DNA of 64,000 bases from an uncultured delta proteobacterium. Its GTDB lineage: Bacteria; Desulfobacterota; Binatia; UBA9968. Position 1 is the first letter of the stretch; the number at the start of each line of letters is the position of its first letter. This document shows, one piece after another, positions 12,245 to 64,000 of the stretch. The stretch lies in assembly GCA_963771465.1 (NCBI GenBank), contig CAVYTU010000017.1:736001-800000 (forward strand), in the 5' to 3' direction. A model generated the notes under the pieces. The model ran no database searches, was not told the DNA's origin, and worked only from the letters and a program-made list of their open reading frames with translations. The translations under genes were made by a program, and so were the position numbers.

Positions 12245-12463
12245 ATGGAGCATAGAGAAGAACAAACGATTGTCTCCCTGCTGGACAAGGATCCAGAGTT
12301 GAAGAAATTTTATCATGAGCACCAGGAGCTTGAAAAAAAGCTCGCTGAATTTCAGCATAAACATATTTTGTCTCCTGAAGAAGAATTGGAGATGAAAAAA
12401 ATTCAGAAGCTAAAACTGATCGGCAAGGATCGGATCATGGAGCTTCTAGGAAAATACCGGTAG
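12245..12463 (+). CDS. DUF465/YdcH-family small coiled-coil protein
   Basis: AGGAGG RBS; 72 aa with HQELEKKL and KKIQKLKLIGKDRI, typical of the family. Confidence 0.8.
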   Translation: MEHREEQTIVSLLDKDPELKKFYHEHQELEKKLAEFQHKHILSPEEELEMKKIQKLKLIGKDRIMELLGKYR

Positions 12464-48868: not shown

Positions 48869-51277
48869 TCAGGAAAACGGACGCGCCGCGAGTCTTTCAC
48901 CGGGAGAAAAACCATGCGGAGCTTCGGGCTCGAGAGCAAGCCTTAAGGCCTCGTCCGCGGTTTTCAAAAACTCGAAGCGAATGCCCTCGCGGCCGGCGGG
49001 GGGAATCTCATCTAAATCTCTGCGGTTCATCTCAGGCAGCAAGACACAGGAAATCCCGGCCCTTTTTGCTGCCAGCATTTTTTCTTTAATCCCGCCTACC
49101 GGTAGCACCAAACCACGCAAGCTAATCTCGCCGGTCATGGCGATGTCTTTGCTAATGTGCCGTCCGGTTAACAGTGAAACGAGGGCGACGAAGAGCGTGA
49201 TTCCCGCGCTAGGGCCATCCTTTGGAATAGCGCCCGCGGGTATATGAATATGCAAGTCACTCTTTTTGAAGATCTCGGGATCAATGCCCAAGGTTTCCGC
49301 GCGCGATTTGACCAGGCTCAATGCTGCCTGGGCGCTTTCTTTCATGACTTCGCCCAACTGGCCGGTGAGAATTAACTTGCCGTCTCCCGCCATCTTGGTT
49401 GCTTCGACAAACAAGATATCTCCGCCAAACGGCGTCCAGGCCAAGCCCGTAGCTACGCCGGGTAAGCTGGTGCGCAGCGCGATCTCGTTGAAGAATCTCT
49501 TCGGGCCCAGGTAGCCATGGAGAGATTCTTGATCGATGGTGATGGTATCTTCATGACCATCCGCGACCCGCGTCGCTACGCTACGGCAGATAGCTCCCAG
49601 CTGACGCTCGAGTTGGCGCACGCCGGCTTCGCGCGTGTAGGAACGAATAACTTCCCGGATGGCATCATCGGTGAAATTAATCTGCTCCGCTTTGAGACCA
49701 TTCTCGGAGATTTGCCGAGGCACGAGGTAACCCTTGGCGATGACCAGTTTGTCCTCTTCGGTGTAGCCCGGCAATTCCAAAATTTCCATGCGGTCGCGTA
49801 GCGGGCCCGGCACCGTGTCGAGCACGTTCGCCGTCGCGATGAACAATACCTGAGATAGATCGAAGGGCACCGCAAGATAATGGTCTTGAAAGGTTGAATT
49901 CTGCGAAGGATCGAGGACCTCCAGCAACGCAGCGGAAGGGTCGCCATGAAAACTCGCGCTGAGTTTGTCGATCTCATCGAGCATGAAGACGGGATTTCGA
50001 CTGCCGGCCTTTTTAATCCCTTGAATAATATTTCCCGGCAGCGCGCCGATGTAGGTGCGCCGATGGCCGCGAATATCCGCTTCGTCATGGACGCCGCCGA
50101 GACTTTGGCGCACGAACTTACGATTCATCGCCCGAGCGATACTTTGTCCCAGGGAGGTCTTACCGACGCCCGGAGGGCCGACTAGACACAGGATAGGACT
50201 TTTCCCTTCCGGCATGAGCTTACGAACGGCGAGGAATTCGATGATACGCTTCTTCACTTTGTCGAGGCCGTAATGATCGGCGTCGAGAATCTCGCGGGCT
50301 TTTGGCAAGTCAATCTCTTCCTTGGTGACAATGCTCCAAGGCAGATCTACCAACCAATCGAAGTAGGTTCTCAACAACGAGTGTTCTGGCGACATCTCAG
50401 GAATTCGCTCCAGCCGCGCCAGCTCTTTGAGCGCTTCCGCCTCGACTTCGGGCGGCATCTTTGCGTCGTAGAGTTTTTGTCTAAGCTCTTCGACTGCAAC
50501 GCCTTTGCCGTCTTCTTCGCCCAGTTCTTTTTGAATTGCCTTCAATTGCTCGCGCAGGAAATATTGGCGCTGGGACTTATCCATGGATTCCTTGGTTTCC
50601 GCGCCAATTTTCTTGCTCAATTCCAGCAATTCGATCTGCCGCGCCAATTTTTCCGAAACTCTTTGGGCGCGCTTCTCGGGGTCAAGGATCGCCAGAACCT
50701 CTTGTTTCTCGGCGGTCGGCAGATCCAAGGTCGAAGCGATCATATCGATTACGGACAAAGGATCTTCAATCCGTTCGATCATCGCTCTCAGATCGTTCAT
50801 CGGATCAGGGAATAATGACAATGCCCGGGCGGCTTCCTGTCGCAGGTGTAGGATTCTCGCCTCGAACTCTTTTGTCTGCGGAACCAGTTCCTCCACCATG
50901 GTGACCCGCGCGATGAGGACGGGATCGGTCTCAATAAATTCGCGGATTTCAAAGCGGCGGCGGCCTTGAACGATGACCTGACGCCGACCGTCCGGTAGGG
51001 TAAACATTCGCAGCACGTCGGCGGCCGTACCGATATCGTAGAGGTCCTTGGGCTGCGGCGCGTCGGTATTTGGATCGCGTTGAACGACGAATCCGATCGG
51101 CACTTGTTGGCGCACCGCTTCTTCGACTGCGAGCAGCCGCGCCGGACGGCCGACCATCAATGGCATAATCATGGACGGATAGAGGACCCGGTTGCGCATT
51201 GGGATGATGATCAATGCGTCCGCGGGAATATTTAGGCGCGGCTTGGTTTTAGGGGTTTCCGTTGCTTCAGCGTTCAT
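48869..51277 (-). CDS. lon: ATP-dependent protease La (LonA)
   Basis: LON N-domain, GPPGVGKTS, RGHRRTYIGA, LDEIDK, PKDGPSAG, GGIKEK. Confidence 0.98.
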   Translation of the reverse strand: MNAEATETPKTKPRLNIPADALIIIPMRNRVLYPSMIMPLMVGRPARLLAVEEAVRQQVPIGFVVQRDPNTDAPQPKDLYDIGTAADVLRMFTLPDGRRQVIVQGRRRFEIREFIETDPVLIARVTMVEELVPQTKEFEARILHLRQEAARALSLFPDPMNDLRAMIERIEDPLSVIDMIASTLDLPTAEKQEVLAILDPEKRAQRVSEKLARQIELLELSKKIGAETKESMDKSQRQYFLREQLKAIQKELGEEDGKGVAVEELRQKLYDAKMPPEVEAEALKELARLERIPEMSPEHSLLRTYFDWLVDLPWSIVTKEEIDLPKAREILDADHYGLDKVKKRIIEFLAVRKLMPEGKSPILCLVGPPGVGKTSLGQSIARAMNRKFVRQSLGGVHDEADIRGHRRTYIGALPGNIIQGIKKAGSRNPVFMLDEIDKLSASFHGDPSAALLEVLDPSQNSTFQDHYLAVPFDLSQVLFIATANVLDTVPGPLRDRMEILELPGYTEEDKLVIAKGYLVPRQISENGLKAEQINFTDDAIREVIRSYTREAGVRQLERQLGAICRSVATRVADGHEDTITIDQESLHGYLGPKRFFNEIALRTSLPGVATGLAWTPFGGDILFVEATKMAGDGKLILTGQLGEVMKESAQAALSLVKSRAETLGIDPEIFKKSDLHIHIPAGAIPKDGPSAGITLFVALVSLLTGRHISKDIAMTGEISLRGLVLPVGGIKEKMLAAKRAGISCVLLPEMNRRDLDEIPPAGREGIRFEFLKTADEALRLALEPEAPHGFSPGERLAARPFS

Positions 51278-51705
51278 GCATTTTTCCTTAGCTCGATGAT
51301 GAGGAGCCCATCCTTGAAGGATATCTCTGCTAGCAATAACGGTTTCTCGTTGCCGACCAGCCTGACGCGCCGCTCAAAGCGGCCAAGCGGAACTTCCCAT
51401 AGCTTTAGCTCCCCATCGTGGCAGCAATTTGGCAGCGGCCGGTCGCCGGCGATGACCAAGTCGTGTCCCTCAAGCCGTACCTCGACCCGTTCAACTGCAA
51501 CGCCAGCGAGGGCAGACATCACCCACACGCTTTCGTCGGTCTCGACTACGTTAACGGGAGGCTCCCATCTTGGCGTTCTGCCAGGCTGTGCACGATAACG
51601 CGCATTGGCGGCGACTTGGAGAAAATTTCTCCGGATCCGCTCTGCCTGCTGGAGCAGATCGTTCGCTCGCTGCCACATGATAAAATCCCAATCGTGCCCT
51701 GCCAT
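51274..51705 (-). CDS. Hsp20/alpha-crystallin family protein
   Basis: WEPPVNVVET, LAGV, IAGDR, GRFERRV, DGLLIIEL; GGAGG RBS; overlaps the lon start. Confidence 0.88.
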   Translation of the reverse strand: MAGHDWDFIMWQRANDLLQQAERIRRNFLQVAANARYRAQPGRTPRWEPPVNVVETDESVWVMSALAGVAVERVEVRLEGHDLVIAGDRPLPNCCHDGELKLWEVPLGRFERRVRLVGNEKPLLLAEISFKDGLLIIELRKNA

Positions 51706-51760
51706 CTGCCCGCCTCCACTACACTTAAGTAAAATAGGCTGATTTTCGCGATTCCCTAAT

Positions 51761-51789
51761 AACCTAGGTATGGGATGGGCTATTGTCAA
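51761..51789 (-). promoter_or_regulatory. sigma70-type promoter for hsp20-lon
   Basis: Minus-strand TTGACA, 17 bp, TAGGTT. Confidence 0.65.
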
Positions 51790-51950
51790 GGAAAGTAAGC
51801 TGCCGGCCACGGCATAATTTCTCTTAAAGTTGGTCTAATATTGAACAGAATCCTTCACTGTCCCGGCATAAATTAAACCAAAGCGGCGCAAATCATTGCG
51901 AATTTTAGAAGTCAATCTGCCGGCACGTGAACTGTCGCGTTACGGAGGAC

Positions 51951-52343: not shown

Positions 52344-52456
52344 TATCCTTGGCGCAGGTTAACTGCCGAGGTTTCATTAGCCGAGAATAGATCACCGACC
52401 AAGCCCCGGGGAAAGTCGACTGTTTGATGTAGGCATCGTGGGCTTCGAAAGGAGAC

Positions 52457-53144
52457 ATGATGACGATTCAACAAACTCCCCAAGCCGACGAGTTCAAACA
52501 ACAACTGCGCGAATCGCTGCAGCGCGAGACCATGAATTCTCACGCCGTGAAGATCGCTCAGACACGACAACGTGTATTCCTGCGGCGATCAAGACGAGAC
52601 GGTTTATTTCATCGAGAGCGGGCAGATCAAACTGCTGATGGTCTCCACCGAGGGTAAAGAGTGTCTGTTGGCCATCCATAGCGGCGGCGATATTTTCGGT
52701 GAACTTTGCCTGTCGGGGTTGGGCGCGCGATTGGAGACCGCGACGGCGATGAAAGCAACGACTTTAAAACAGATACCGTGTTCACAGTTCTTTGCCCGTC
52801 TGAGCCACGACTCGCTGTATGAGGGGTTCGTGCGCTACCTGGCGGTGCGCATAGCCGACCAACAGCAGATCATCGCCAATCTCGTCACGGTCGATAGCGA
52901 GCAGCGGCTGGGCCAGACGTTGTTGCAGTTGGCCCGCACCATGGGCAAGAAGGATCCTCGCAGCATTCGCATCGAGCTCAAGATTACCCATGAAGAACTG
53001 TCCGAGATGGTCGGCACGACACGGCCGAGGATCAGCCTGTTCATGCAGCGGTTCCATAACCTTGGGCTGATCGAGACGAATAAGGACCATTTTCTCATCA
53101 TCAAAGAAACGAAACTCACCGATTACTTAGCGCACATTGCCTAG
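52457..53144 (+). pseudogene. Crp/Fnr-family transcriptional regulator with one-base insertion near 52559
   Basis: AAGGAG RBS and ATG at 52457. The cNMP-binding domain (VY.CGD..ETVYFIESGQIKL, GDIFGE) and HTH (ITHEELSEMVGTTRPRIS) are in the frame shifted by +1. Confidence 0.75.
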
Positions 53145-53279
53145 TGCTGCTGAGAGTCTAGGCGAGCCGCGCGATAGTTCTTTCTTGTTGGGTGCATCGC
53201 CGGTCAAAACATCGCGTGACGGCAGGGAAGTCAGGGGAACTCGACCTCTCTCTTCAAACTCCTATTTGCTAAGTCCCGT

Positions 53280-53314
53280 CGACCTTTTGGTCGGGCATCT
53301 CGACTGTTTCGTCG
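53280..53314. promoter_or_regulatory. Dyad operator/UAS copy 1
   Basis: CGAC-CTTTTG-GTCG-GGCATCT-CGAC-TGTTTC-GTCG. Confidence 0.75.
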
Positions 53315-53388
53315 TACCGTCCCAGTGTTTGCTTCCGTCACGCTAGATATTACCCAGCGATGTTAGCTGTCTTCCTGATTGCGAGCAC

Positions 53389-53404
53389 TGGCACATAAGC
53401 TGCT
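53389..53404 (+). promoter_or_regulatory. sigma54 promoter 1
   Basis: TGGCAC-ATAAG-CTGCT. Confidence 0.8.
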
Positions 53405-53448
53405 CTCATAGTGATTGAGAAAAGATATTAGAAAGAAGGTGCCTGACT

Positions 53449-53598
53449 ATGAGCCTGCTGTTGTTGATCGTATTAGTTCTGTTGCTGGTCGGCGGTTTGC
53501 CCAACTGGGGTTATCATAAGTATGGCTTTGCGCCCTCCGGTTTCGCCGGAACGGTGCTGCTCGTCGTGGTCATTTTGCTTTTGACCGGCCGGCTTTAA
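53449..53598 (+). CDS. DUF3309-family small membrane protein (49 aa)
   Basis: MSLLLLIVLVLLLVGGLPNWGYHKYGFAPSGFAGTVLLVVVILLLTGRL; GxLPxW...G..PSG...GR signature. Not in the ORF track. Confidence 0.88.
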   Translation: MSLLLLIVLVLLLVGGLPNWGYHKYGFAPSGFAGTVLLVVVILLLTGRL

Positions 53599-53706
53599 AG
53601 AGACCGCAGAGAATTTAAGGCACAGGGTTTCATTCCGGAGGTTACTAGAAATTCTTCGAGTAAGCCTGACTCGACCCTGCTAATCAGTACAACCGAGGAG
53701 GCTGCG

Positions 53707-53935
53707 ATGAAAAAATTAATGTTAGTGTTAGTGCTGTTGATCGGCGTCAGTCAAAGCGGCTGTGCATTCTTGGGCGGCGCGGCGGTAGGCAGCCTTGGGC
53801 ACTGGCGCGGGTTACGAAATCAATGCTAATAGCCAGATGGGCAAGTTGGAAAATGATTACAAAGCCGAGAGAATCTCTCGAAGTGAATACCTAGCTCGTA
53901 AATCGCAGATCGAAAAAGGCTCGATCATCTATTAG
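53707..53935 (+). pseudogene. Frameshifted copy of the 75-aa lipoprotein at 63681-63908
   Basis: Aligns end to end with 63681-63908 but is 229 nt rather than 228. An extra G at 53797-53799 gives a premature TAA at 53827-53829. Confidence 0.85.
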
Positions 53936-54120
53936 GAAACATCATTATTCTGTTCGATCGTATCGCTTCGGATTTAGTCCTAGACCCAAGACTCAATAGA
54001 CTCCCGAAGCGGATGGTTCAAAGAGCAAATAGGCGAATCGTCGCAGCACGGGAAGTTGAACGCTCGCGCTGCGACGATCTTGCGAGGTAGCCAAGGATCA
54101 GCTTAGAAAGGGATAGTATT

Positions 54121-54609
54121 ATGGCCTTTAGCAACGCCTGGTCGAACTGGTGGCGCGGTGTTCTCGGGCCTTCTCCTGATACAAATCAAAAGGTGATTGA
54201 GATCTTGTGCCAGCGGTACGTCGATGAGATGCAGCGAATCGAACGGTTTAAGCAGTATGCGGAGAAGATGCACTACCCGCAGTATCGCGACAAACTCCTG
54301 CGCATGGTGACGGAAAAAAGTCACCATGCCGAGCGGATTGGCGAGCGCATAGTCGCCGTCGGAGGTCTGATGCCGGACGTGGTCGACCAGCGCTCGACCG
54401 CACAAAACAGTTGGCGCTCTTTGTCGATGGCTCTCGACGAGGAGAGTCGCTCGGCCGACCGTCTGGAAGAGCAACTCCGGAGCATTCAATCCGAGCACGC
54501 CGACATCGCCCAATTCCTGCAACAGATTTCTCAAGAGCAAGAGAATCACCGTGTGGTAATCCGCGATATGATGATGCGCAGCGATCCGTTTGCGCTCTCG
54601 CTCGCTTAG
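54121..54609 (+). CDS. Ferritin-like four-helix-bundle protein
   Basis: Helical protein with DE...EKSHHAERIGERIVAVGG...DEE...EQENH pattern. Confidence 0.75.
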   Translation: MAFSNAWSNWWRGVLGPSPDTNQKVIEILCQRYVDEMQRIERFKQYAEKMHYPQYRDKLLRMVTEKSHHAERIGERIVAVGGLMPDVVDQRSTAQNSWRSLSMALDEESRSADRLEEQLRSIQSEHADIAQFLQQISQEQENHRVVIRDMMMRSDPFALSLA

Positions 54610-54714
54610 GACCAAGCTTAGCTCGCCCTCTCGAAGTACAACATTCGCAGAATCCAAAACGCATCGTTACACGTTTTCATCGCGGTGATTCAGTGAGATC
54701 TGAATGATCCAAAC

Positions 54715-54749
54715 CGACCCTTTGGTCGAGAGTCTCGACGCTTTCGACG
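54715..54749. promoter_or_regulatory. Dyad operator/UAS copy 2
   Basis: CGAC-CCTTTG-GTCG-AGAGTCT-CGAC-GCTTTC-GACG; core GTCGAGA-G-TCTCGAC is a perfect inverted repeat. Confidence 0.8.
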
Positions 54750-54823
54750 GAACTCTCTCCGCTTCTCGCTGCCAGACTATACAAAGCGATCGGATCACCT
54801 AGCTTTTTCCGCACTACAAGCCG

Positions 54824-54839
54824 TGGCACAGAGCTTGCG
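54824..54839 (+). promoter_or_regulatory. sigma54 promoter 2
   Basis: TGGCAC-AGAGC-TTGCG, near-perfect consensus. Confidence 0.85.
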
Positions 54840-54878
54840 CATTCTTAGTTCGATCGTCCCAAGAGACAAACTATCTAT

Positions 54879-55073
54879 ATGCTTGCAACCATTTTGATCG
54901 TCGTCATGATTTTGTTGCAGACAGGTGCGCTGTCACTGACTTTCATGATCGATCGACGATTTATTACCGCGGCGGTGAGGTCGAAACGTAAATCGGCTCA
55001 CTCAACAATACATAACCGGGAGCGGCCCAAAAGGCGCCGGTCTCGGAAACAGGGAGGTGCTTTATGCCTTTAG
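54879..55073 (+). CDS. Small ORF with DUF3309-like N-terminus (possibly degenerate)
   Basis: MLATILIVVMILLQTGALS followed by a basic tail without family resemblance; first ATG after sigma54 promoter 2. Confidence 0.4.
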   Translation: MLATILIVVMILLQTGALSLTFMIDRRFITAAVRSKRKSAHSTIHNRERPKRRRSRKQGGALCL

Positions 55074-55282
55074 TTCAACTCGTAGTCGTCCTGATCGTGG
55101 TTGGTGTTCTGCTCGGCCTGGTCAATCGCTACATACCGATGGCAGGATCGATCAAATCGATTCTCAATGGCGTTGTCGTCATCGGCGTAGTGCTGTGGCT
55201 GTTGAATGTTTTCGGGCTCATTAACTCGATCTCGGCGATCCGTGTGGGGAAGTTGTCTTGGCTCGGCGCCATCGGCGCATAG
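55064..55282 (+). CDS. Thivi_2564-like small membrane protein
   Basis: GGGAGG RBS; LIVVGVLLGLVNRYIPMAGSIKSILNGVVVI.VVLWLL.VFG, two TM helices. Confidence 0.8.
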   Translation: MPLVQLVVVLIVVGVLLGLVNRYIPMAGSIKSILNGVVVIGVVLWLLNVFGLINSISAIRVGKLSWLGAIGA

Positions 55283-55359
55283 TTGTGGCGAAGAGGACTC
55301 CCGAAGTTTCCAACCAGCCTGTAGTGTAACCGATAATCAGTGATCATGGAGTACCGTCT

Positions 55360-57930
55360 ATGTTGTATTGGTCACTGTTTTTTCTTTGTGTTACTCTAGC
55401 CGCGGGGCTACTAGGAATTGCTTTCACTGCGGCGCACGCGCGAAAAACTTTGCCGGCGCTCTATCCACACATTCGCTGGAACTGGGCGACTACTATTCCA
55501 ACTGGGTTCAGACGTTTGCGCGCGAGAGCACTGGCGGTGGCTCGCTTCACCAAACGACATTGGTGGCGAGGCATCCTTAATCTGGTAATTTGCACAACGC
55601 CGATAATAGCCGCTGTCGTGTCAATCGGAATTTATCGCGTCTATTTTGACCGCAAAGATTTGCCTGACATAGAAGCTTTCGTCCGCTTTGAATTTCCTAC
55701 CATCGGCACCGTCTACGATGCCAACGGCCAGCCGCTCATTGAACTGGCAAAAGAGTACCGCAAGATCACCCAGTATGAGGACATTCCGGCGATTGTTCGT
55801 GATGCCATCATCGCGACCGAAGACAAACACTTCTTCTCCCATAGCGGCGTTGATTATTCGGCATTTCCTCGCGTGCTGGGCAAAGTCAGGATTCGGGTTC
55901 TGGCGGCAGGGCTCACAGGTTTCGGCGGGCAAGACGAAGTTGAGAGCCCGGCGCTTCTGCCGCAAGGTGGATCGACGATCACTCAACAGCTCGTGCGCGG
56001 TCATTTTCTCAAAAACCTGACGGCGAATGAAAACAGCCACCAGCTCCAGCATGCCGGAATCGTACCGGGCGCGCTGTCTGCCGTGGTCGGCGGCCGGACC
56101 GTCAACATGCTGGTTCGCAAGCTGGAGGAGATGCGCCTCTCGTTGTGGCTCGAAAAAGCGATGGAGAATCGTTTCGGCTCGAAACGCAAGGCTAAGGAAG
56201 AGATTCTCGCCCGCTATGCCAGTTTCATTTACATGGGAAACAGCCAGTACGGGTTTGCCACCGCAGCGGAATATTATTTTGGCCGGCCGCTCGCCACTTT
56301 CACCGCCGATGACGCCGACAAGGCAGCGCTCCTCGCCGGCATCGCCAAGTCGCCGCGTTACTACGCTCCCACTGCGAAGGACAGCTCAAGGGTGTTGCGC
56401 CGCAGGAACCAAACCTTGGCGCTCATGGCAGGGAACGGTTTTATTTCTCGGGACACAAGGAGTGCAGCCGAACAGCGCCCAATTCAGGTGATCGCGCAGC
56501 GCAAAAGCAAGATGCTTGGGGCGCCCGCGGTCATGGATAATGTCCTTCAGGAACTCAAGCGCCGCGGCGACCTCGGCGTTGAGGATATTCTGCAAGGGCG
56601 TATCCAGGTTTACTCGACGGTGGATGTTCGCATGCAGCAACTGGCCAACCAGGCCCTGGAGCGCGGCCTCGAGCTCTACGAGCGGCGACACCCGAGTGCC
56701 AAAGGGATAGTCCAAGGTTCTGTGGTCGTGTTGAGGAACCGCGATGCGAGCATTCTCGCCGAGACGGGCGGCCGTCAGTTCTACAAGAACCGCTCCGCCG
56801 CATACAGCGACTTTAACCGCGTCACCAACTCCCTGCGGCAACCTGGATCAACGATGAAACCCATGGTTTATCTCGCTGCTTTTCGACAGGGAGGCTTTAA
56901 TCTTGAGACCGTGGTTCCCGACGAACCGATCGGTGTGCCGGACGGCGAGAAGCAGAATACGAAATGGATCTCGAACTACGATAAAACATTCAGAGGCATG
57001 ATTCCGCTCCGCGAGGCGCTCGCAGAATCCAGAAACGCCGTGGCGATTTGGCTCACGGGGGAGATCGGCATTGGCAGTGTTCTGGGCACGTCACGGAGTC
57101 TCGGGGTCAAGACGCGATTGCAGCCCTATGCGACGACGGGGTTGGGCGCGTCCGAAGTAAATTTGCTGGAGCTCGCCAATGCGTACCGCGCCATGGCATC
57201 GGGGATCTTCGCCGAGCCGTATGTGATCCGAAAAATCGTCCGCGATTCAGGCGAAGTGATGACCGAAAACGCAATGGAGCAGTCTGCGGTCAATATCAAC
57301 GACTCCGCGCTCGCGCTGATTCAGGAAGGCTTGCGCGGTGTGGTGCGTATGCCCAGCGGCACGGCCCATACGCTTAACTCTAACGTTTTCCCAATCGCGG
57401 TCATGGGCAAGACCGGGACGACAAACGAGTTCAGAGATGCGCTCTTTGTCGGCTCGACTTACGGCGCCGACGGCATCACCATCGCCGTCCGTGTCGGCTT
57501 CGACGATAACCGTTCGCTCGGAGCCAATGAAACCGGCGGTCGGCTGGCGTTGCCGGTTTTCAAAGAACTCATGCTCAACGTGTACCGCGAAAAGTTGGTC
57601 GGCGCCGCGCCCAAGTTTCCGCCGCAGATGGAGCAGAATATTAGCGATTATTTGGCGGGCGGCACCGTCGCAACGGGAGAGCCGTTAATCGAATTTAACC
57701 CTGTCAAATTTGCCAGTGCCCCTTTCGGTGCGTTTGACGGATCGCGGCGAAGCGTCTCAAGGACAGCCGTAGAAATATTTCAATCAAAATGTCTAAAATT
57801 GGACTGCGATCTATGTCAATTTGATCGACAATTCAAAAGTCTTCAAAAACTTATGGAAACTTTGAATAGACGGGATATCCTCCAGGAAGTTTCTAACCGA
57901 ATGCGGGTATTCCGGGTGGTATGTGGTTGA
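55360..57930 (+). CDS. Class A penicillin-binding protein (transglycosylase/transpeptidase)
   Basis: TG motifs EDKHFFSHSG, GGSTITQQL, RKLEE; TP motifs STMK, SRN, KTGT. Confidence 0.93.
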   Translation: MLYWSLFFLCVTLAAGLLGIAFTAAHARKTLPALYPHIRWNWATTIPTGFRRLRARALAVARFTKRHWWRGILNLVICTTPIIAAVVSIGIYRVYFDRKDLPDIEAFVRFEFPTIGTVYDANGQPLIELAKEYRKITQYEDIPAIVRDAIIATEDKHFFSHSGVDYSAFPRVLGKVRIRVLAAGLTGFGGQDEVESPALLPQGGSTITQQLVRGHFLKNLTANENSHQLQHAGIVPGALSAVVGGRTVNMLVRKLEEMRLSLWLEKAMENRFGSKRKAKEEILARYASFIYMGNSQYGFATAAEYYFGRPLATFTADDADKAALLAGIAKSPRYYAPTAKDSSRVLRRRNQTLALMAGNGFISRDTRSAAEQRPIQVIAQRKSKMLGAPAVMDNVLQELKRRGDLGVEDILQGRIQVYSTVDVRMQQLANQALERGLELYERRHPSAKGIVQGSVVVLRNRDASILAETGGRQFYKNRSAAYSDFNRVTNSLRQPGSTMKPMVYLAAFRQGGFNLETVVPDEPIGVPDGEKQNTKWISNYDKTFRGMIPLREALAESRNAVAIWLTGEIGIGSVLGTSRSLGVKTRLQPYATTGLGASEVNLLELANAYRAMASGIFAEPYVIRKIVRDSGEVMTENAMEQSAVNINDSALALIQEGLRGVVRMPSGTAHTLNSNVFPIAVMGKTGTTNEFRDALFVGSTYGADGITIAVRVGFDDNRSLGANETGGRLALPVFKELMLNVYREKLVGAAPKFPPQMEQNISDYLAGGTVATGEPLIEFNPVKFASAPFGAFDGSRRSVSRTAVEIFQSKCLKLDCDLCQFDRQFKSLQKLMETLNRRDILQEVSNRMRVFRVVCG

Positions 57931-57985
57931 ACCGTGTAGGTTAAGTACTGAAAACTTCCTCCTCTTTAATCCTAAGGAGAAAAAG

Positions 57986-58105
57986 ATGGGGGAGATTTCG
58001 ATCCCCGATGAGTGGCTCGACGACCCGCACCAACGGAGCACCATCGGTGAATCGCTTGCGACGACGATCGAAAATTGCAAGGACGCTATTCCTAAGCGCG
58101 TCTAA
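57986..58105 (+). CDS. Possible 39-aa small protein
   Basis: AAGGAG RBS before ATG; no recognisable motif. Confidence 0.3.
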   Translation: MGEISIPDEWLDDPHQRSTIGESLATTIENCKDAIPKRV

Positions 58106-58321
58106 GTTCTTCCCTTCATCCCGCCCTTGAGCTGTTCCGCGGCGGCGCGGCCGAGAACACGGCCTTAGATCGCCGCGGTTGGTTTGTCTTTCTCTCTCCC
58201 TTAGCCTCGCAATAGTTCTTTCGCGACCGTCCGGTATTGGACAGCATTCGATCCTGGTTACGTGCATGATGTGCGTCGAATAGCGCTTATCCAAAAAGCG
58301 CCATTTCAAAAGGAGTCTCAG

Positions 58322-60382
58322 ATGAAAACGGTAAAAGTTATTTTATTGGTGATGGCGGTACTTCTGCTGCCCAGATTCGCCGATGCATTAGACCTCGGTT
58401 CTGTGCGAATCAGCTTTTTGGAAGGCGATGTCCAGATGAGGACGACCGAGGCGGATGACTGGGTCCCTGCCGCGATTAACACACCTCTCGATGAAGGCGA
58501 CGAATTATGGGTGCCGGAGGGCGGCAGGATGGAGTTTCAGCTCAACACCGGGACTGCCGTGAGACTGGACCAGAATTCAGCGTTGCAGATACTGACTCTC
58601 GAGAGCAATTCTTCCCAGTTTTATCTAACTGAGGGGCATGTGTATGTGGATCATAATGCCCCGCGCGGTCATGTCCTCCAGTTCGACACCCCAGTATCAT
58701 CCCTGCGCGCCTATGACCGATCAGTTTTTAGAGTCGATGTCCCTGATCAGTATACCGATGTCTCGGTGTTTCGCGGTTCAGTAGACGCGGAAGGAAGCGA
58801 TGGCAGGACGCGGGTCAGCGCGGGCAGGACTCTGACACTCGGCGAGGGCAGAGAGGCGGAACTCTCGCCGGTCGGACGGGCCGATGCCTGGCAAAATTGG
58901 AATACTGAACGAGATCGGCGGTTCGCATTACGTGGAGACAGTTACCGATATCTCCCCGAAGAACTGCGAGTTTACTCCAGAGATTTGGATGACAATGGAA
59001 GGTGGATACAGGTTTCGGAATACGGTTACGTATGGACACCCCGCTCGGTCTCAACGGACTGGACGCCCTACCGAACCGGGAGGTGGATGTGGAGAGGCGG
59101 AGATTATGTATGGATAGGCTCTGAGCCCTGGGGATGGACACCGTATCATTACGGCAGATGGGCCCATGCTCCCCGAATCGGATGGTTTTGGGTTCCGCCC
59201 CAGCGGCGCCAAGTCTACTGGGGTCCCGGATACGTGGGGTGGGTTAAGACTCGCGATCACGTCGCTTGGGTGCCGCTGGCACCGCGGGAAGTGTACTACG
59301 GTTATGGCAACTACGGTCCGAACAGCGTGGACATTAGAAAGCGCAATGTAAGAGAGATCAACATAACCAACATCACCTACAAGAATGTGCAGGTGAACAA
59401 CAGCGTGACGGTCATCAATAATAATAGCTTCGTGAGCGGACGGCGCGATGTGGTCAATGTCAGAGAGAACCCGTTCTTGACCGAGAAGATAAACGTCGGC
59501 AGGCCGGACATAAAACCTGAAAAGGCGAGTTTTGCGCCGGTGGTAAAAACCATCGACCCCGCCAAGCTGCCGCCGCAGCAAGTCACCAAAATAGCGGTGA
59601 AAGATCTCAAACAAGAAAGGCGACTAGTCAAAGAGCAAAATCAGTCCGTGATCAACAAGGGTGAGCCGGTAAAATCCTTGGTCGTAAAGGCCGTGGCGCA
59701 ACCCAAGAGCCCAACGGAAAAAGTGCAAGAGCGTCAGCAGAAGGGCGCGAGCGCAGCAGCAGGAGAAACCCCTCGGGTGAAGAGTGAAGAAAAGTCTGCG
59801 AGCTCGAGCGCACCGCCTGCTGAGACCAAGGCAACAAAGGGCGGCAGTCCGTCAACCCCTCAACCGGCGGCGAAGCAAGCGGAGAGCGCTCGCGAAAAAG
59901 CGCAAGAGCCCCGGCAGACGCAGATGGAAAAGGGTAAGAGCGGTCCAGCAGTGGAAAGCCCCAGAGCCAAGGGAGAGGAAAAGTCCGCAGGCCCCGCCGC
60001 AACCACCGAGACAAAGGAGACTAAAGGCCGCAAGAGTCCTGCGCCAGTGTCTGAAACAAAACCTGAATCAACGGTCGAGCCGAGAGACAGAAAGTCGCCG
60101 CGGGCTGAAGAAAAGGCTGCAACCCCGGTCAAACCGGTCGAGACAATCGAGAGGAAAAGCGCAAAGCAATCAGGTCCTGACGACGGGCAAAAGTCAACGC
60201 CAAGTTCCGCTAAGGCCTCGAAGGCGAGCGATGAAACTAAAGGCAGCAAGCAAACCGTGGCGGAAAAAAAGGAATCAAGAGAAGAAAAGAAGGTCAAGAA
60301 AGAGGAACTCGACAGCAAGGGGAAATCCACTGAGACCAAAGAAGAGAAGATCGAGGAAAAACAGAAAACTCGCGATCAGTAG
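58322..60382 (+). CDS. Exported FecR-domain/DUF6600 protein with long low-complexity tail
   Basis: Signal peptide, RISFLEGDVQ...INTPL.EGD (FecR-like), Trp-rich WTPYRTGRW...EPWGWTPYHYGRW...WVPLAPRE, K/E/S/P-rich C-terminus. AAGGAG RBS. Confidence 0.85.
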   Translation: MKTVKVILLVMAVLLLPRFADALDLGSVRISFLEGDVQMRTTEADDWVPAAINTPLDEGDELWVPEGGRMEFQLNTGTAVRLDQNSALQILTLESNSSQFYLTEGHVYVDHNAPRGHVLQFDTPVSSLRAYDRSVFRVDVPDQYTDVSVFRGSVDAEGSDGRTRVSAGRTLTLGEGREAELSPVGRADAWQNWNTERDRRFALRGDSYRYLPEELRVYSRDLDDNGRWIQVSEYGYVWTPRSVSTDWTPYRTGRWMWRGGDYVWIGSEPWGWTPYHYGRWAHAPRIGWFWVPPQRRQVYWGPGYVGWVKTRDHVAWVPLAPREVYYGYGNYGPNSVDIRKRNVREINITNITYKNVQVNNSVTVINNNSFVSGRRDVVNVRENPFLTEKINVGRPDIKPEKASFAPVVKTIDPAKLPPQQVTKIAVKDLKQERRLVKEQNQSVINKGEPVKSLVVKAVAQPKSPTEKVQERQQKGASAAAGETPRVKSEEKSASSSAPPAETKATKGGSPSTPQPAAKQAESAREKAQEPRQTQMEKGKSGPAVESPRAKGEEKSAGPAATTETKETKGRKSPAPVSETKPESTVEPRDRKSPRAEEKAATPVKPVETIERKSAKQSGPDDGQKSTPSSAKASKASDETKGSKQTVAEKKESREEKKVKKEELDSKGKSTETKEEKIEEKQKTRDQ

Positions 60383-61435
60383 GACGTTAATAAAGAGGAT
60401 TAGTTGACGACCGCTCCGTTTTGCATAGCAAATTATTTCAAAAAGCTAATGACACCATCTGGCAGCAGAGAGAATGATTCAGAAGTTGTTCTCTCTGCCG
60501 CGCGGCAATTGACAAATGCCTGTCTCGACTTTGAGAGCAATTCGAGCAGTCCGCAAACAGGATTTAATTGCATGGTGCTGCCTTAATCACTGCGACCTAA
60601 TTTCACTAACTCCGCTCCGTCATAGCGCGCCGCAGGTGTCGCGGCTCCAGCGATAAATCTTATCCAGTTCGTCCAATTTTGGACAGAAACCCTCGTTGAC
60701 TCGGCTTAGGCTATTTCGAAATAGATGGAGGTGACCGATGGCTGCTGACAACCGCCGTGCCGAGGGTCGACGACCGCCACACCGAGGCAGAAGTGACCGC
60801 GAAAGTAATCCAGTATTGGGGGAGATTCGAGATGAGGAAAGCATCCCTTTGGGGAAAGAGCTGCCAAATCGAGAAACACGTGATTGGCAACGACGGCGCG
60901 GGCGATCGCATTTACAGCCGTTGGACACGCACAATTAGAGCCGGCGCCATTACCAGTGGAATGCTTGTAAAGCTCAGCAAAATTATTCTTTCCACTTTGG
61001 AGCTCGGTTTAAGCTTGCCCCAGCATAGCACGCTGTAAACGCGATAATGGTCGGTGGGGCAGAAAGATCGTTTTTGCGTTTCGAAGACGGCGCTAGCGTC
61101 GATTAGAACGATATCGCGATGAAAAGAGCAAGATTGCTATTGCATCTAATGATGGCACTGGGTCTTGGTGGGGAATGCTTTGCACTTTCAAACCGAGCCG
61201 CAGCCGCTGGCACGCTCCGGGAGGGACGTGGCGTGCACCCCGTGTACGAAAATGGTTCCAAAGCTCAGATTGTCGCCATAGCGGAAAAGAGTCATAGAGA
61301 CGAAAAAAATTGTCTCGCGCCGGTCCGATTAACGAGGACGAGGCGAAACGATTGAGGTTGATTTTTCTGCTCATGATGAGTCTGGGTCAATATCGGACCC
61401 TAACTCATTAGAACGCGGAAAAAATTCGAGCGATC

Positions 61436-61470
61436 CGACTGTTTAGTCGAAAGTCTCGACGCGATTGACG
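61436..61470. promoter_or_regulatory. Dyad operator/UAS copy 3
   Basis: CGAC-TGTTTA-GTCG-AAAGTCT-CGAC-GCGATT-GACG. Confidence 0.8.
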
Positions 61471-61545
61471 AGGTGCCTTGGCATTTCTCTTTTCCATTCC
61501 GAAAAATCCCGAGCTAAATCCGGCCGTCTCCGACATTTCAGCGTG

Positions 61546-61560
61546 CGGCACAACAGTTGC
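61546..61560 (+). promoter_or_regulatory. sigma54 promoter 3
   Basis: CGGCAC-AACAG-TTGC. Confidence 0.8.
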
Positions 61561-61613
61561 CCTAGAAAGTTTTATCGAGTCTGCGCTCGCCGCCGCGAAG
61601 GGAAGATGTGGTG

Positions 61614-61790
61614 ATGGACAAAATCATTCTGATTTTGCTGATCGGAATTTTCGGTTGGTGGATAGGAAACATGACGGGACAAGCTGCTTATGAGCCGGTA
61701 TTTGAAACCGACCCTAGCGAGATCGATATGATCTTCGGGATTGTCGGCGCTTCAGTCAGCGGTTACTTGTATGCGATTGTGCCCCGGTAG
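61614..61790 (+). CDS. Small membrane protein, divergent GlsB/YeaQ/YmgE-like
   Basis: Two hydrophobic segments; IGIFGWWIG...DMIFGIVGASVSGYL resembles the family motif. Start may be GTG 61608. Confidence 0.6.
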   Translation: MDKIILILLIGIFGWWIGNMTGQAAYEPVFETDPSEIDMIFGIVGASVSGYLYAIVPR

Positions 61791-61972
61791 CTAAAAACCG
61801 CCGAGCGAATGAAACCCAACTTTCGCTCTTTGTTTGCGTCCGCATTGGAGCAACCCGACGGCTTTTTAATGTCATCGAGTGTTGGACTGGAGTATGGCGA
61901 TGATTCTAAATCATCATCAGCAATAGCAACCCGATCCTTGCGCAAGGATCCGAACATTGAATGGAGATCAGT

Positions 61973-62185
61973 ATGTGGAACAAAGATGAGATCAAAGGCA
62001 AGGGTAAGCAAATCACTGGGGCGATCAAGGACAAGACGGGGGAATTGACTAACAATCCCAAGCTCGAAGCTAAGGGCGAAGCCGAACGCAGCGTTGGAAA
62101 ACTTCAGGAGCAGAGCGGCAAAGCGCGCCGGAAAACCGGTGAAGCAATTCAGAAGGTCGGCAAGGCGATTGCCGGCAAATTATAA
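61973..62185 (+). CDS. csbD: CsbD-family general stress protein
   Basis: NKDEIKGKGKQITGAIKDKTGELTNN..LEAKGEAE...GKLQE..G. GGAG RBS. Confidence 0.9.
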   Translation: MWNKDEIKGKGKQITGAIKDKTGELTNNPKLEAKGEAERSVGKLQEQSGKARRKTGEAIQKVGKAIAGKL

Positions 62186-62298
62186 CTCGCGAGTTAGCTT
62201 ACTGACTCGTACCACGTTTGGCAGCAGAGAGTTGTTTAATCAACTCTCTGCCGCCGGGCAACCCATAGCGGAGCTGCTGACCGCGAACGGAGGACACC

Positions 62299-62721
62299 GT
62301 GATGTATTCCTCATCGCCATTTTCCCGTTTCGCCAAGTGGACGGCACGAGCCACCGGCCATCCGGCGGCATTCGTCGCCGCCGCTTCGATCATTGTAGGC
62401 TGGGGCGTGACGGGCCCGATATTCAAGTTCAGCGACACGTGGCAACTGGTCATAAACACCGGCACGACGATCGTCACGTTCCTGATGGTATTTCTGATTC
62501 AAAATACCCAGAACCGCGATAGCCACGCCGTCCAACTCAAGCTCGACGAACTGATTCGCGCGGTGGGCGGCGCGCACAATGCGTTGCTCGACCTCGAAGA
62601 GCTTGAAGAAGCAGATCTCGAGCGCTTTCGCGCGCGCTATGAAGAACTCGCGTGCGCTGCACGGGAAGCGCTGGGGCGTGGGGAATTGGATACCGGCACG
62701 CCGGAAGTCAGATCGGATTGA
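62299..62721 (+). CDS. Low-affinity iron permease (Fet4-like) family protein
   Basis: FSDTWQLVINTGTTIVTFLMVFLIQNTQNRD...QLKLDELI. GGAGG RBS. Confidence 0.92.
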   Translation: MMYSSSPFSRFAKWTARATGHPAAFVAAASIIVGWGVTGPIFKFSDTWQLVINTGTTIVTFLMVFLIQNTQNRDSHAVQLKLDELIRAVGGAHNALLDLEELEEADLERFRARYEELACAAREALGRGELDTGTPEVRSD

Positions 62722-62904
62722 GTCACGCGTTCCGTGAAGATCGTTAGGCGCGACGCTTTGGCAAAATTTTAAGATAGCAGAATCGGGGCAAGGATTGCCT
62801 TTCGTTAATTTTTTCGTCGGTGATGCACTCAAGAGAGTCTCGTGGAGTCAGATAAAGCGAGTGGCATCAAAATATCGTTCGTTTAACACTTTAACTCAAG
62901 CTCT

Positions 62905-62929
62905 CGACCATTTGGTCGAGAGTTTCGAC
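62905..62929. promoter_or_regulatory. Dyad operator/UAS copy 4
   Basis: CGAC-CATTTG-GTCG-AGAGTTT-CGAC; CTCTCGAC-N6-GTCGAGAG is a perfect 8-bp dyad. Confidence 0.8.
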
Positions 62930-63011
62930 CATTTAGGTTTTATCTGTCGGTTTTTTTCAGACAACAGGAAACCAGCTACCGTAAACACAGCCTTTCTCGC
63001 CTAATAGCGCT

Positions 63012-63027
63012 TGGCATGGATAGTGCG
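63012..63027 (+). promoter_or_regulatory. sigma54 promoter 4
   Basis: TGGCAT-GGATA-GTGCG (GG-N10-GC). Confidence 0.72.
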
Positions 63028-63072
63028 CTAATCCAGGAGTGAAGAATCGACAACCCAAATAGAGGAGAGACT

Positions 63073-63153
63073 ATGGATACTATACTGATCGTTATTCTCG
63101 TGTTGCTTGTGGTCGGTGGTGGCGGCTGGGGATATTCTCGTCGGCGCCGGTAG
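63073..63153 (+). CDS. 26-aa single-TM microprotein
   Basis: GAGGAG RBS; MDTILIVILVLLVVGGGGWGYSRRRR. Confidence 0.8.
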   Translation: MDTILIVILVLLVVGGGGWGYSRRRR

Positions 63154-63209
63154 CGGCCGTTGACTAGTGCAGCGGTAAATCGCAAACGTGAATGAAAGGA
63201 GAATCTGAC

Positions 63210-63284
63210 ATGAATAATATTATTTACATCGTCGGTCTTGTAGTAGTAGTGCTTTTTGTCGCCGGTTATCTGGGACTGAGATAG
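63210..63284 (+). CDS. 24-aa single-TM microprotein
   Basis: AAGGAG RBS; MNNIIYIVGLVVVVLFVAGYLGLR. Confidence 0.8.
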   Translation: MNNIIYIVGLVVVVLFVAGYLGLR

Positions 63285-63680
63285 TTCGGAGCGTGCTCGG
63301 TACTACTTGCGACCAAGCTTTCCGGCCGGCCGCACGAAGTGAACAGAGAAATGTTTTATCCCATACGTCACCTGCTCACTCGACCCTTCGTGGAGCGTTT
63401 CGACGTTCAATCGAGCCGTTTCTTCGTTTCCGTTAGGAAGCCTCCGGAACTTATTGGAAACGCAGGCTTTCCCTTGTTACGAAGTCCGGCAACTGATAGT
63501 GCGCACATATTTGATGGGGCAAAAAGCCCTGCGCAGGGGCTGGCCTCATGATTTTTCTTTTCGCTTCGGTCTCTTTTTAGACAGCAATCTCTCAATTGTC
63601 AGGGTATCGGTAAAGACAACTAAGGCGTGGGGGCTGCACCAGACTTGACCCTACTAATCAGTCACAACCACGGAGTTAAA

Positions 63681-63908
63681 ATGAAAAAGTTAATGTTGGT
63701 GTTAGTGCTTTTGATCGGTGTCAGTCAAAGCGGTTGCGCGTTCCTCGGCGGAGCGGCGGTAGGCGGCCTAGCAACCGGAGCAGGCTACGAAATCAATGCT
63801 CATAGCCAGATGAACAAACTCGACGATGATTACAAAGCCGAGAGAATATCGCGCGCCGAATACCAAGCCCGGAAATCGCAGATCGAGAAGGGCTCAATTA
63901 TTTACTAG
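63681..63908 (+). CDS. 75-aa lipoprotein
   Basis: GGAG RBS; signal with lipobox QSGC, glycine-rich GGAAVGGLATGAG, C-terminal ISRAEYQARK (SHOCT-like). Paralog at 53707. Confidence 0.8.
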   Translation: MKKLMLVLVLLIGVSQSGCAFLGGAAVGGLATGAGYEINAHSQMNKLDDDYKAERISRAEYQARKSQIEKGSIIY

Positions 63909-63914
63909 GAGGTT

Positions 63915-64000
63915 ATGATGAACTTATTCAATCGTGCGGCAGCGAGTTTAACTTTCGCCATGGCATTGACGCTAAGCGCTGGGTGCATGGAGAACATCGC
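63915..64000 (+). CDS. Lipoprotein, truncated by window end
   Basis: AGGAGG RBS; MMNLFNRAAASLTFAMALTLSAGCMENI with lipobox SAGC. Confidence 0.65.
   Translation, partial: MMNLFNRAAASLTFAMALTLSAGCMENI

Follow-up and report, generated by a model that had tools for sequence, protein, structure and literature searches.

Four fixed-distance enhancer-like repeats upstream of sigma-54 promoters suggest a self-regulated envelope or stress regulon in an uncultured Binatia lineage

Why should four copies of one self-complementary repeat stand between genes in a single stretch of bacterial DNA, each approximately 100 bp ahead of a sigma-54-type promoter box? In this study, we analyzed a 64-kb region (C17:736001-800000, hereafter the window; C17 is contig CAVYTU010000017.1) from the 6.9-Mb, 19-contig assembly GCA_963771465.1 (G000) of an uncultured delta proteobacterium belonging to Binatia. 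A preliminary description of this region had proposed that the repeats drive a general-stress-like programme of small proteins through sigma-54 and one activator. Our results suggest that the four repeats are probably the enhancers (upstream activating sequences, UAS) of one self-regulated sigma-54 regulon that comprises nine promoter modules and resembles the ZraSR and NtrC systems. Coordinates are collected in Table 1; positions without a contig name refer to the window.

First, the repeat was far more frequent than expected. The pattern CGAC-N6-GTCG-N7-CGAC was matched five times in the window (once at each of the four sites and once more where site 1 is read in reverse), whereas 0.06 matches were expected and none of 100 shuffles, the null used for both the enhancer and the promoter-box patterns, reached five. 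The four positions reported previously were exact, and the self-complementary pattern with a 21-bp period could be resolved into two CGAC-N6-GTCG dyads per enhancer, each dyad being 14 bp long, with centres 21 bp apart and a whole site of 35 bp. Counted from the -24 GG, the dyad centres were approximately 103 and 82 bp upstream, on the same helix face. The fourth half-site was GTCG in site 1 and GACG in sites 2 and 3, and was missing in site 4 (GGTT).

Second, the promoter boxes were both overrepresented and rigidly placed. YGGCAY-N5-BTGC had eight matches in the window (2.5 expected; 0 of 100 shuffles reached eight), half of which were found 108-111 bp past the first CGAC of an enhancer. These four are the GG-N10-GC boxes described before, at exactly the same positions, and re-measurement of the distance between the central GTCG and the GG gave the same 100, 100, 101 and 98 bp. 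The other four matches (23291 and 35626, +; 45119 and 46183, -) had no enhancer of this type. YGGCAY-N5-NTGC was matched by all four promoters in the window and by all eight in the island described below, with GG and GC exactly 10 bp apart, and the stricter promoter pattern had a frequency of 0.045 per kb per strand. The genome also contains rpoN (Sigma54_DBD, 214 bits, C14:367875-368351, inside a 494-aa open frame).

A position weight matrix (PWM) derived from the sites of this genome scored 43-59 at eight places genome-wide and 22.9 at a ninth, with everything else at 21 or below, showing that the motif is genome-specific and above background. Nine enhancer-plus-promoter modules were thus recognized, eight of them (P1-P8) in one 29-kb island of C17 and one on contig C18. 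The eight island sites all lie on the plus strand between C17 789280 and 817670; four are inside the window and the others are at C17 806882, 809077, 815188 and 817670. In all eight modules the GG is 108-111 bp past the first CGAC. When the search was started from the promoter side, the loose pattern GG[CT]A-N7-NGC gave 9,985 matches in the genome, only eight of which (all on C17) were preceded, at a distance of 60-180 bp, by a site with a score above 16, and these eight were all at 108-111 bp. The alternative that the motif occurs at background frequency without a spacing bias is therefore not consistent with the data.

The DNA between enhancer and promoter had been described as dissimilar, and among the eight island modules it was indeed mostly unrelated (pairwise identity 0.44-0.71, compared with 0.53 +/- 0.04 in the shuffled null). 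The top pair (0.71) was P1 and P5, a paralogue of P1 beyond the window. Weak conserved A/T patches were observed in the spacers of the 74 modules introduced below, with information peaks at -40, -31..-28 and -21..-18 from the GG, and such patches could possibly represent an IHF site or an intrinsic bend.

As the inner half-sites are inverted copies of each other, it is conceivable that the repeats are not protein-binding sites but RNA hairpins, terminators of the same-strand operons ahead of them, or dispersed repeats of the REP (repetitive extragenic palindromic) type. Site 4, which was flagged as terminator-like, indeed folded strongly when compared with shuffles (z = -5.5), whereas the other three sites were no better than shuffles (z = -1.5, -0.7 and +0.7). 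In addition, neither a fixed distance to a sigma-54 box nor co-occurrence with one regulator would be expected for terminators or REP elements, and the motif was confined to one island and one other place. We rejected RNA structure as an explanation because three of the four sites folded like shuffles, and consider it very hard to believe that the repeats are anything but protein-binding sites. As a separate observation, the region of enhancer 4 (62895-62955) would form a strong RNA hairpin (-23.3 kcal/mol) followed by a T-rich stretch, and this enhancer may double as a terminator of the preceding operon.

Because the PWM was built from the sites of G000 itself, only relatives provide independent support for the spacing. 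The genomes compared are kin and hence not independent, and co-occurrence is given as counts without a statistic. The loose motif was present in 17 of 41 relatives (G000 counted; no match for the reversed control), and the strict motif in 23 of 90 family genomes representing 8 of 23 genera (one match for the control). No strict motif was detected in 200 other genomes sampled from the phylum, showing that, within this sample, the motif is not general to the phylum. In motif-bearing genomes the sites were clustered and co-oriented, and a single island of G020 had as many as 12 of them if mismatches were allowed. A scan of all species genomes revealed a promoter at the fixed spacing in 42 of 80 fetched loci; 40 of these came from records of Binatia, delta proteobacterium or one Thermodesulfobacteriota metagenome-assembled genome, and 34 of the 38 loci without a promoter were single hits in unrelated taxa.

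Combining G000 and the fetched loci, we obtained 100 unique PWM hits: 74 had a promoter at 106-111 bp, one had it at 124 bp and 25 had none, most of the latter being single chance hits in unrelated taxa and one being the inverted C18 site. The 74 modules (promoter consensus GGCAC-N6-TGCT) were distributed over offsets of 106, 107, 108, 109, 110 and 111 bp as 1, 3, 13, 31, 18 and 8, with no alternative helical-phase classes. The association of motif and promoter is thus conserved among relatives. When the self-regulatory module was aligned across nine genomes, enhancer, promoter and spacing were all kept, while its spacer was unrelated in the two sister-family genomes. Two near-matches in one of the latter (G029:C5:487317 and 628756) had outer half-sites CGCC instead of CGAC, possibly as a result of divergence of the operator.

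Which protein would bind these dyads? Sigma-54 promoters require an AAA+ activator, and the preliminary description had placed a single activator outside the window. We found a candidate in the P8 operon, which starts approximately 18 kb past the window end. Apart from an OmpA-like protein, this operon encodes a histidine kinase with a Cache domain and a response regulator of the NtrC type. The 589-aa kinase contains sCache_3_2, HisKA and HATPase domains. The regulator matched Response_reg (111 bits), Sigma54_activat (109 and 120 bits on two fragments) and HTH_8 (55.8 bits), its translation contains the GAFTGA loop, and among proteins of solved structure it is best matched by Aquifex NtrC-family members and ZraR. 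Since kinase and regulator are the last genes of the operon of the last island module, the system would activate its own synthesis. Just past this pair, a further sigma-54-like box, TGGCAT-N5-TTGC, was seen within C17:822540-822984 (L003 2540-2984), 85 bp upstream of a gene for a 119-aa single-domain response regulator, with no recognizable enhancer of the same type.

The distribution of this regulator largely followed that of the motif. In all five genomes tested (G018, G020, G004, G014 and G015), its best match was inside the motif cluster, with 82-88% identity and a site approximately 3.6 kb upstream, and other regulators in these genomes were less than 50% identical, save a second copy (70-72%) in G014 and G015. 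An orthologue was again located by a site in three further genomes, namely G019 and the sister-family genomes G027 and G029. In G027 it is intact (456 aa, GSFTGA) and the operon order is enhancer, promoter, a 143-aa protein without family, DegP/HtrA protease, kinase and regulator. On the other hand, all five genomes of the genus that lacked the motif and were 94-100% complete (one of them, G005, is unpublished) also lacked the orthologue. Among the other 89 family genomes, 14 had both the motif and an orthologue (at least 82% identity), 8 the motif only, 3 the orthologue only and 64 neither.

Approximately 27 genes with a Sigma54_activat domain were identified in the genome, so that the dyads might be bound by another of some 25 enhancer-binding proteins or, alternatively, by a Crp/Fnr-family protein of the island. 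The 5-bp half-site with an N6 spacer has a CRP-like geometry, and two Crp-family paralogues are present in the island (52457-53144 and C17:807967-808647, the latter being the last gene of the P5 operon). However, a Crp paralogue with 81-83% identity occurs in G005 and G007, both of which lack the motif, and none was found in G027 and G029, where the motif adjoins the kinase-regulator operon. This distribution, opposite to that of the motif, led us to reject a Crp-family binder, and sigma-54 promoters would need an AAA+ activator in any case. No other enhancer-binding protein was syntenic with the sites in the eight genomes examined. Binding by a different regulator thus appears improbable, and synteny and co-occurrence indicate the neighbouring NtrC-type regulator as the most likely binder.

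Based on these results, we propose the following mechanism. The Cache-domain kinase would phosphorylate the NtrC-family regulator, whose dimers (receiver, AAA+ domain with GAFTGA, Fis-type helix-turn-helix) would bind the dyads. The regulator would then form an active ring and, through a DNA loop, touch the sigma-54 RNA polymerase on the GG-N10-GC promoter, probably assisted by a bend in the conserved A/T-rich spacer patch, and ATP hydrolysis would open the promoter. The output would be small membrane proteins and lipoproteins, together with proteins related to the envelope or to stress.

With regard to the genes behind the modules, the first open reading frames (ORFs) in the window start 41-54 bp past the promoter box, and all are short and hydrophobic (49, 64, 58 and 26 aa for P1-P4), in agreement with the 40-55 bp stated earlier; the 64-aa and 58-aa ORFs had no family match. 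The earlier calls of csbD, ferritin-like, Fet4-like permease and Thivi_2564-like genes were confirmed by matches to CsbD, Ferritin-like, Iron_permease PF04120 and NF041949. The gene lists in Table 1 comprise same-strand followers as putative operon members; a scan of 52400-64000 for sigma-70 promoters and terminators gave background numbers (8 versus 7.1 and 17 versus 13.3 expected, respectively). Judging from the family names, an envelope or general stress programme would be a reasonable interpretation. Of the programme proposed in the preliminary description, the sigma-54 modules and a candidate for the one activator were thus found, and its stress character is reasonable by family names only.

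This gene content is similar to that of the SigB, RpoS and EcfG regulons, to which genes such as CsbD, YtxH and BON are commonly assigned. Shared families include CsbD, YtxH, BON (OsmY-like), ferritin-like proteins and superoxide dismutase, as well as entericidin-like lipoproteins in relatives. The Binatia promoters, in contrast, are of the -24/-12 type that needs an ATPase activator rather than an alternative factor of the sigma-70 family. Equivalog profiles of RpoS and SigB/F/G had no match over cut-off in the genome (best 294 versus 378.7 and 135.6 versus 234.35 bits; EcfG and PhyR were not searched). Two or three additional group 1/2-like sigma genes exist, and another stress sigma factor is possible.

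Several observations weigh against a functional regulon of this kind. First, the C18 enhancer is inverted relative to its box, and its distance to the promoter exceeds that of the other modules by 28 bp (in relative L013, a module at 12286, ahead of a similar lipoprotein gene, has the standard orientation). Second, 8 motif-bearing family genomes had no orthologue of at least 82% identity, and 17 family genomes had 70-78% homologues but no motif. Five of those 8 are 60-89% complete or have their sites at a contig end, and the other three have 71-74% matches, two of which sit 3.2-3.5 kb downstream of a site; most exceptions to co-occurrence are accounted for by incomplete genomes, by contig ends or by a site that differs slightly. 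Third, the IHF-like element was only a weak conserved patch, and the best of three HU/IHF-family genes scored 103 bits against an IHF alpha cut-off of 120, none being over it. Fourth, six public RNA runs contained small shares of the sequence; in the best of them, X8 (0.29 of words; contigs only), contig L129:10533-11188 spans enhancer 7, which says nothing on expression or start sites. Fifth, the stress role depends on family names, and several first ORFs have no family. Finally, two single extra bases (approximately C17:821034-821039 and 821262), absent from three orthologues, break the frame of the regulator gene (C17:820587-822010).

If real, these frame breaks would make the regulon silent in G000, i.e., the regulon could exist in the lineage with the regulator here being a pseudogene and the nine promoters silent relics. 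The OmpA-like gene of the same operon (C17:817836-818723), the lipoprotein gene at 53707-53935 and the Crp gene at 52457-53144 are likewise frame-broken, while the long genes nearby (Lon, PBP1A and kinase) are intact. However, three public runs, each of a different study (X1, X4 and X8), have contigs at least 92% alike to the stretch that carry an extra G at C17:818089, which would restore the OmpA-like frame by comparison with the intact G014 orthologue. For this break, the evidence favours an assembly indel or a difference between strains. Among the differences listed for the public-run contigs, none fell at the two regulator breaks, with 48 further indels beyond that list. Genome-wide, 3 of the approximately 27 enhancer-binding protein genes are split, a rate close to that of the island and compatible with indel errors, and all nine enhancers and promoters are intact. 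Assembly indels are therefore a likely cause of the frame breaks in the island and may also underlie those in the regulator gene, and we consider a dead regulon in this genome rather unlikely, with a functional self-regulated sigma-54 regulon remaining the preferred interpretation.

How does this regulon compare with known systems? The closest parallel appears to be ZraSR (HydHG) of E. coli and Salmonella, which also combines a periplasm-sensing kinase with an NtrC-type regulator, regulates itself and has an output of the envelope-stress type. The best NCBIfam match of the kinase was ZraS, matches of the regulator included AtoC and ZraR, and the G027 operon includes the DegP/HtrA protease. The scores, in contrast, were far below the equivalog cut-offs (kinase 56.8 versus 479 bits for ZraS; C-terminal and N-terminal regulator fragments 225 and 107 versus 760 bits for ZraR). 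No zraP-like gene was identified, although no search was aimed at ZraP, and the self-regulated operon begins with an OmpA-like gene in the genus and, in G027, with the gene of a 143-aa protein without family, followed by DegP. The E. coli ZraSR regulon consists of zraP, zraSR and perhaps mgtA (PMC7657598). The Binatia regulon is predicted at nine promoters with more than 40 genes, and its output may be read as a response to envelope or general stress, similar to ZraSR on a much larger scale.

At glnAp2, tandem NtrC sites lie approximately 80-130 bp upstream of the sigma-54 promoter. Two dyads on one helical face, a cooperative AAA+ ring and looping would be common to both systems, whereas the dyad CGAC-N6-GTCG with its 21-bp centre spacing is not an NtrC site. 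Furthermore, the Binatia enhancer-promoter distance stayed within 6 bp over 74 modules, whereas NtrC enhancers work at very variable distances, with activity up to 15 kb cited (PMC4641369). The same paper predicted regulons of enhancer-binding proteins in Desulfovibrio vulgaris, including DVU3305 ('general stress response') and DVU3381 and DVU1419 ('envelope stress'), where two-component activators were likewise tied to stress genes by comparative genomics and most promoters were within 100 nt of the site. These regulons differ in having 1-3 operons each and belonging to a different lineage, and the strings CGAC and GTCG were absent from the main text of that paper.

The mechanism class, i.e., a two-component enhancer-binding protein, tandem dyads, a sigma-54 promoter and envelope or stress genes, is textbook; the operator is previously undescribed. 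The preliminary description had not recognized operator or regulon, and we found no account of either in the titles, abstracts or main texts of the literature searched. Searches on Binatota and sigma factors returned nothing on regulation, those joining sigma54 and CsbD nothing relevant by title or abstract, and those on DUF3309 only unrelated papers; Binat*, CsbD and 'general stress' were also absent from the main text of a 2025 comparison of sigma-54 regulons (PMC12316311). Our analysis gives good support to a conserved sigma-54 regulon with a new operator and a candidate two-component activator in an uncultured lineage, noteworthy for its size, small-protein content and rigid geometry, within an ordinary architecture.

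For this uncultured soil lineage, the results provide a concrete regulatory prediction consisting of sensor kinase, regulator, 35-bp operator and nine target promoters. They place DUF3309, Thivi_2564, membrane peptides of 24 to 58 aa and small lipoproteins in a shared putative envelope or general stress context. The near-invariant enhancer-promoter distance, across many unrelated spacers and two families, represents a natural data set on sigma-54 looping geometry, and the regulon agrees with the view, proposed earlier, that control of the cell exterior is the main role of sigma-54 (PMC3162934). More tentatively, it is possible that in this Binatia family sigma-54 and a single self-activating two-component enhancer-binding protein do the job of RpoS, SigB or EcfG. 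A single envelope-stress operon (an OmpA-like protein or DegP, kinase and regulator), such as that of a sister family, might have expanded into a regulon of 9-12 operons in this genus by the spread of a rigid enhancer-bend-promoter cassette whose geometry (106-111 bp) would be under selection.

Table 1. Positions of predicted regulatory elements and of the genes associated with them (window positions unless a contig is named).
Feature	Position	Strand	Remarks
Enhancer (UAS) 1	53280..53314	+	CGACC-N4-GGTCG plus CGAC-N6-GTCG; PWM score 46.7
A/T-rich patch	53358..53375	+	15-32 bp upstream of P1 GG; possible IHF or bend element
Sigma-54 promoter P1	53389..53403	+	TGGCAC-N5-CTGC; GG 110 bp past first CGAC
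DUF3309 small membrane protein, 49 aa (P1)	53449..53598	+	58.4 bits
Small lipoprotein gene (P1)	53707..53935	+	Split over two frames in assembly; intact paralogue 63681-63908
Ferritin-like/rubrerythrin-like protein, 162 aa (P1)	54121..54609	+	27.3 bits
Enhancer (UAS) 2	54715..54749	+	PWM score 55.5
Sigma-54 promoter P2	54824..54838	+	TGGCAC-N5-TTGC; GG offset 110
Small hydrophobic ORF (P2)	54879..55073	+	First ~30 aa kept in relative L017; C-terminus uncertain
Thivi_2564 family membrane protein, 72 aa (P2)	55064..55282	+	NF041949, 66.9 bits
Class A penicillin-binding protein (PBP1A; transglycosylase + transpeptidase)	55360..57930	+	78 bp past previous gene; P2 membership only possible
FecR + DUF6600 protein	58262..60382	+	Long charged C-terminal tail (~250 aa) with many K, E, S, P and T residues; regulon membership only possible
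Enhancer (UAS) 3	61436..61470	+	PWM score 48.6
Sigma-54 promoter P3	61546..61560	+	CGGCAC-N5-TTGC; GG offset 111
Two-helix membrane protein, 58 aa (P3)	61614..61790	+	No family match
CsbD-like protein (P3)	61973..62185	+	49.4 bits
Low-affinity iron permease family PF04120 (P3)	62299..62721	+	179 bits
Enhancer (UAS) 4	62905..62939	+	PWM score 43.3; degenerate fourth half-site
Sigma-54 promoter P4	63012..63026	+	TGGCAT-N5-GTGC; GG offset 108
Membrane peptide, 26 aa (P4)	63073..63153	+	N-terminal half of DUF3309, 29 bits; conserved in relative L005
Hydrophobic peptide, 24 aa (P4)	63210..63284	+	Near-identical copy in P7 operon, C17:815850-815924
Lipoprotein, 75 aa (P4)	63681..63908	+	Paralogue of 53707-53935 gene
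Lipoprotein gene, 212 aa, start (P4)	63915..64000	+	Runs beyond window end
BON, YtxH, GT4 glycosyltransferase, Fe/Mn superoxide dismutase, cardiolipin synthase (after P4)	C17:800626-806745	same strand	
P5 module genes			Paralogous copy of P1 genes; Crp-family regulator
P6 module genes			Glycine-zipper lipoprotein; MlaE/F/D-type transporter and its auxiliary lipoprotein
P7 module genes			Small ORFs; dodecin
P8 module genes			OmpA-like protein; 589-aa kinase; NtrC-type regulator
Kinase + regulator	C17:818817-822010	+	Last genes of last island module's operon
Ninth module	C18:26289-26441 (L004 10289-10441)	box on -	Inverted site; CGGCAC-N5-TTGC; upstream of 78-aa lipoprotein gene

Finally, some features of the island and its surroundings were observed. 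A segmental duplication relates 53280-53935 (P1, DUF3309 and lipoprotein) to C17:806882-808647 (P5), the pair with the most similar spacers; a third copy of the lipoprotein follows P4, and a Crp-family gene is located beside each of P1 and P5. Genes for Lon protease and Hsp20 lie just upstream of the island (48869-51810, minus strand), and ClpB and Hsp20 flank the single module of G027, suggesting a heat-shock or proteostasis neighbourhood in both.

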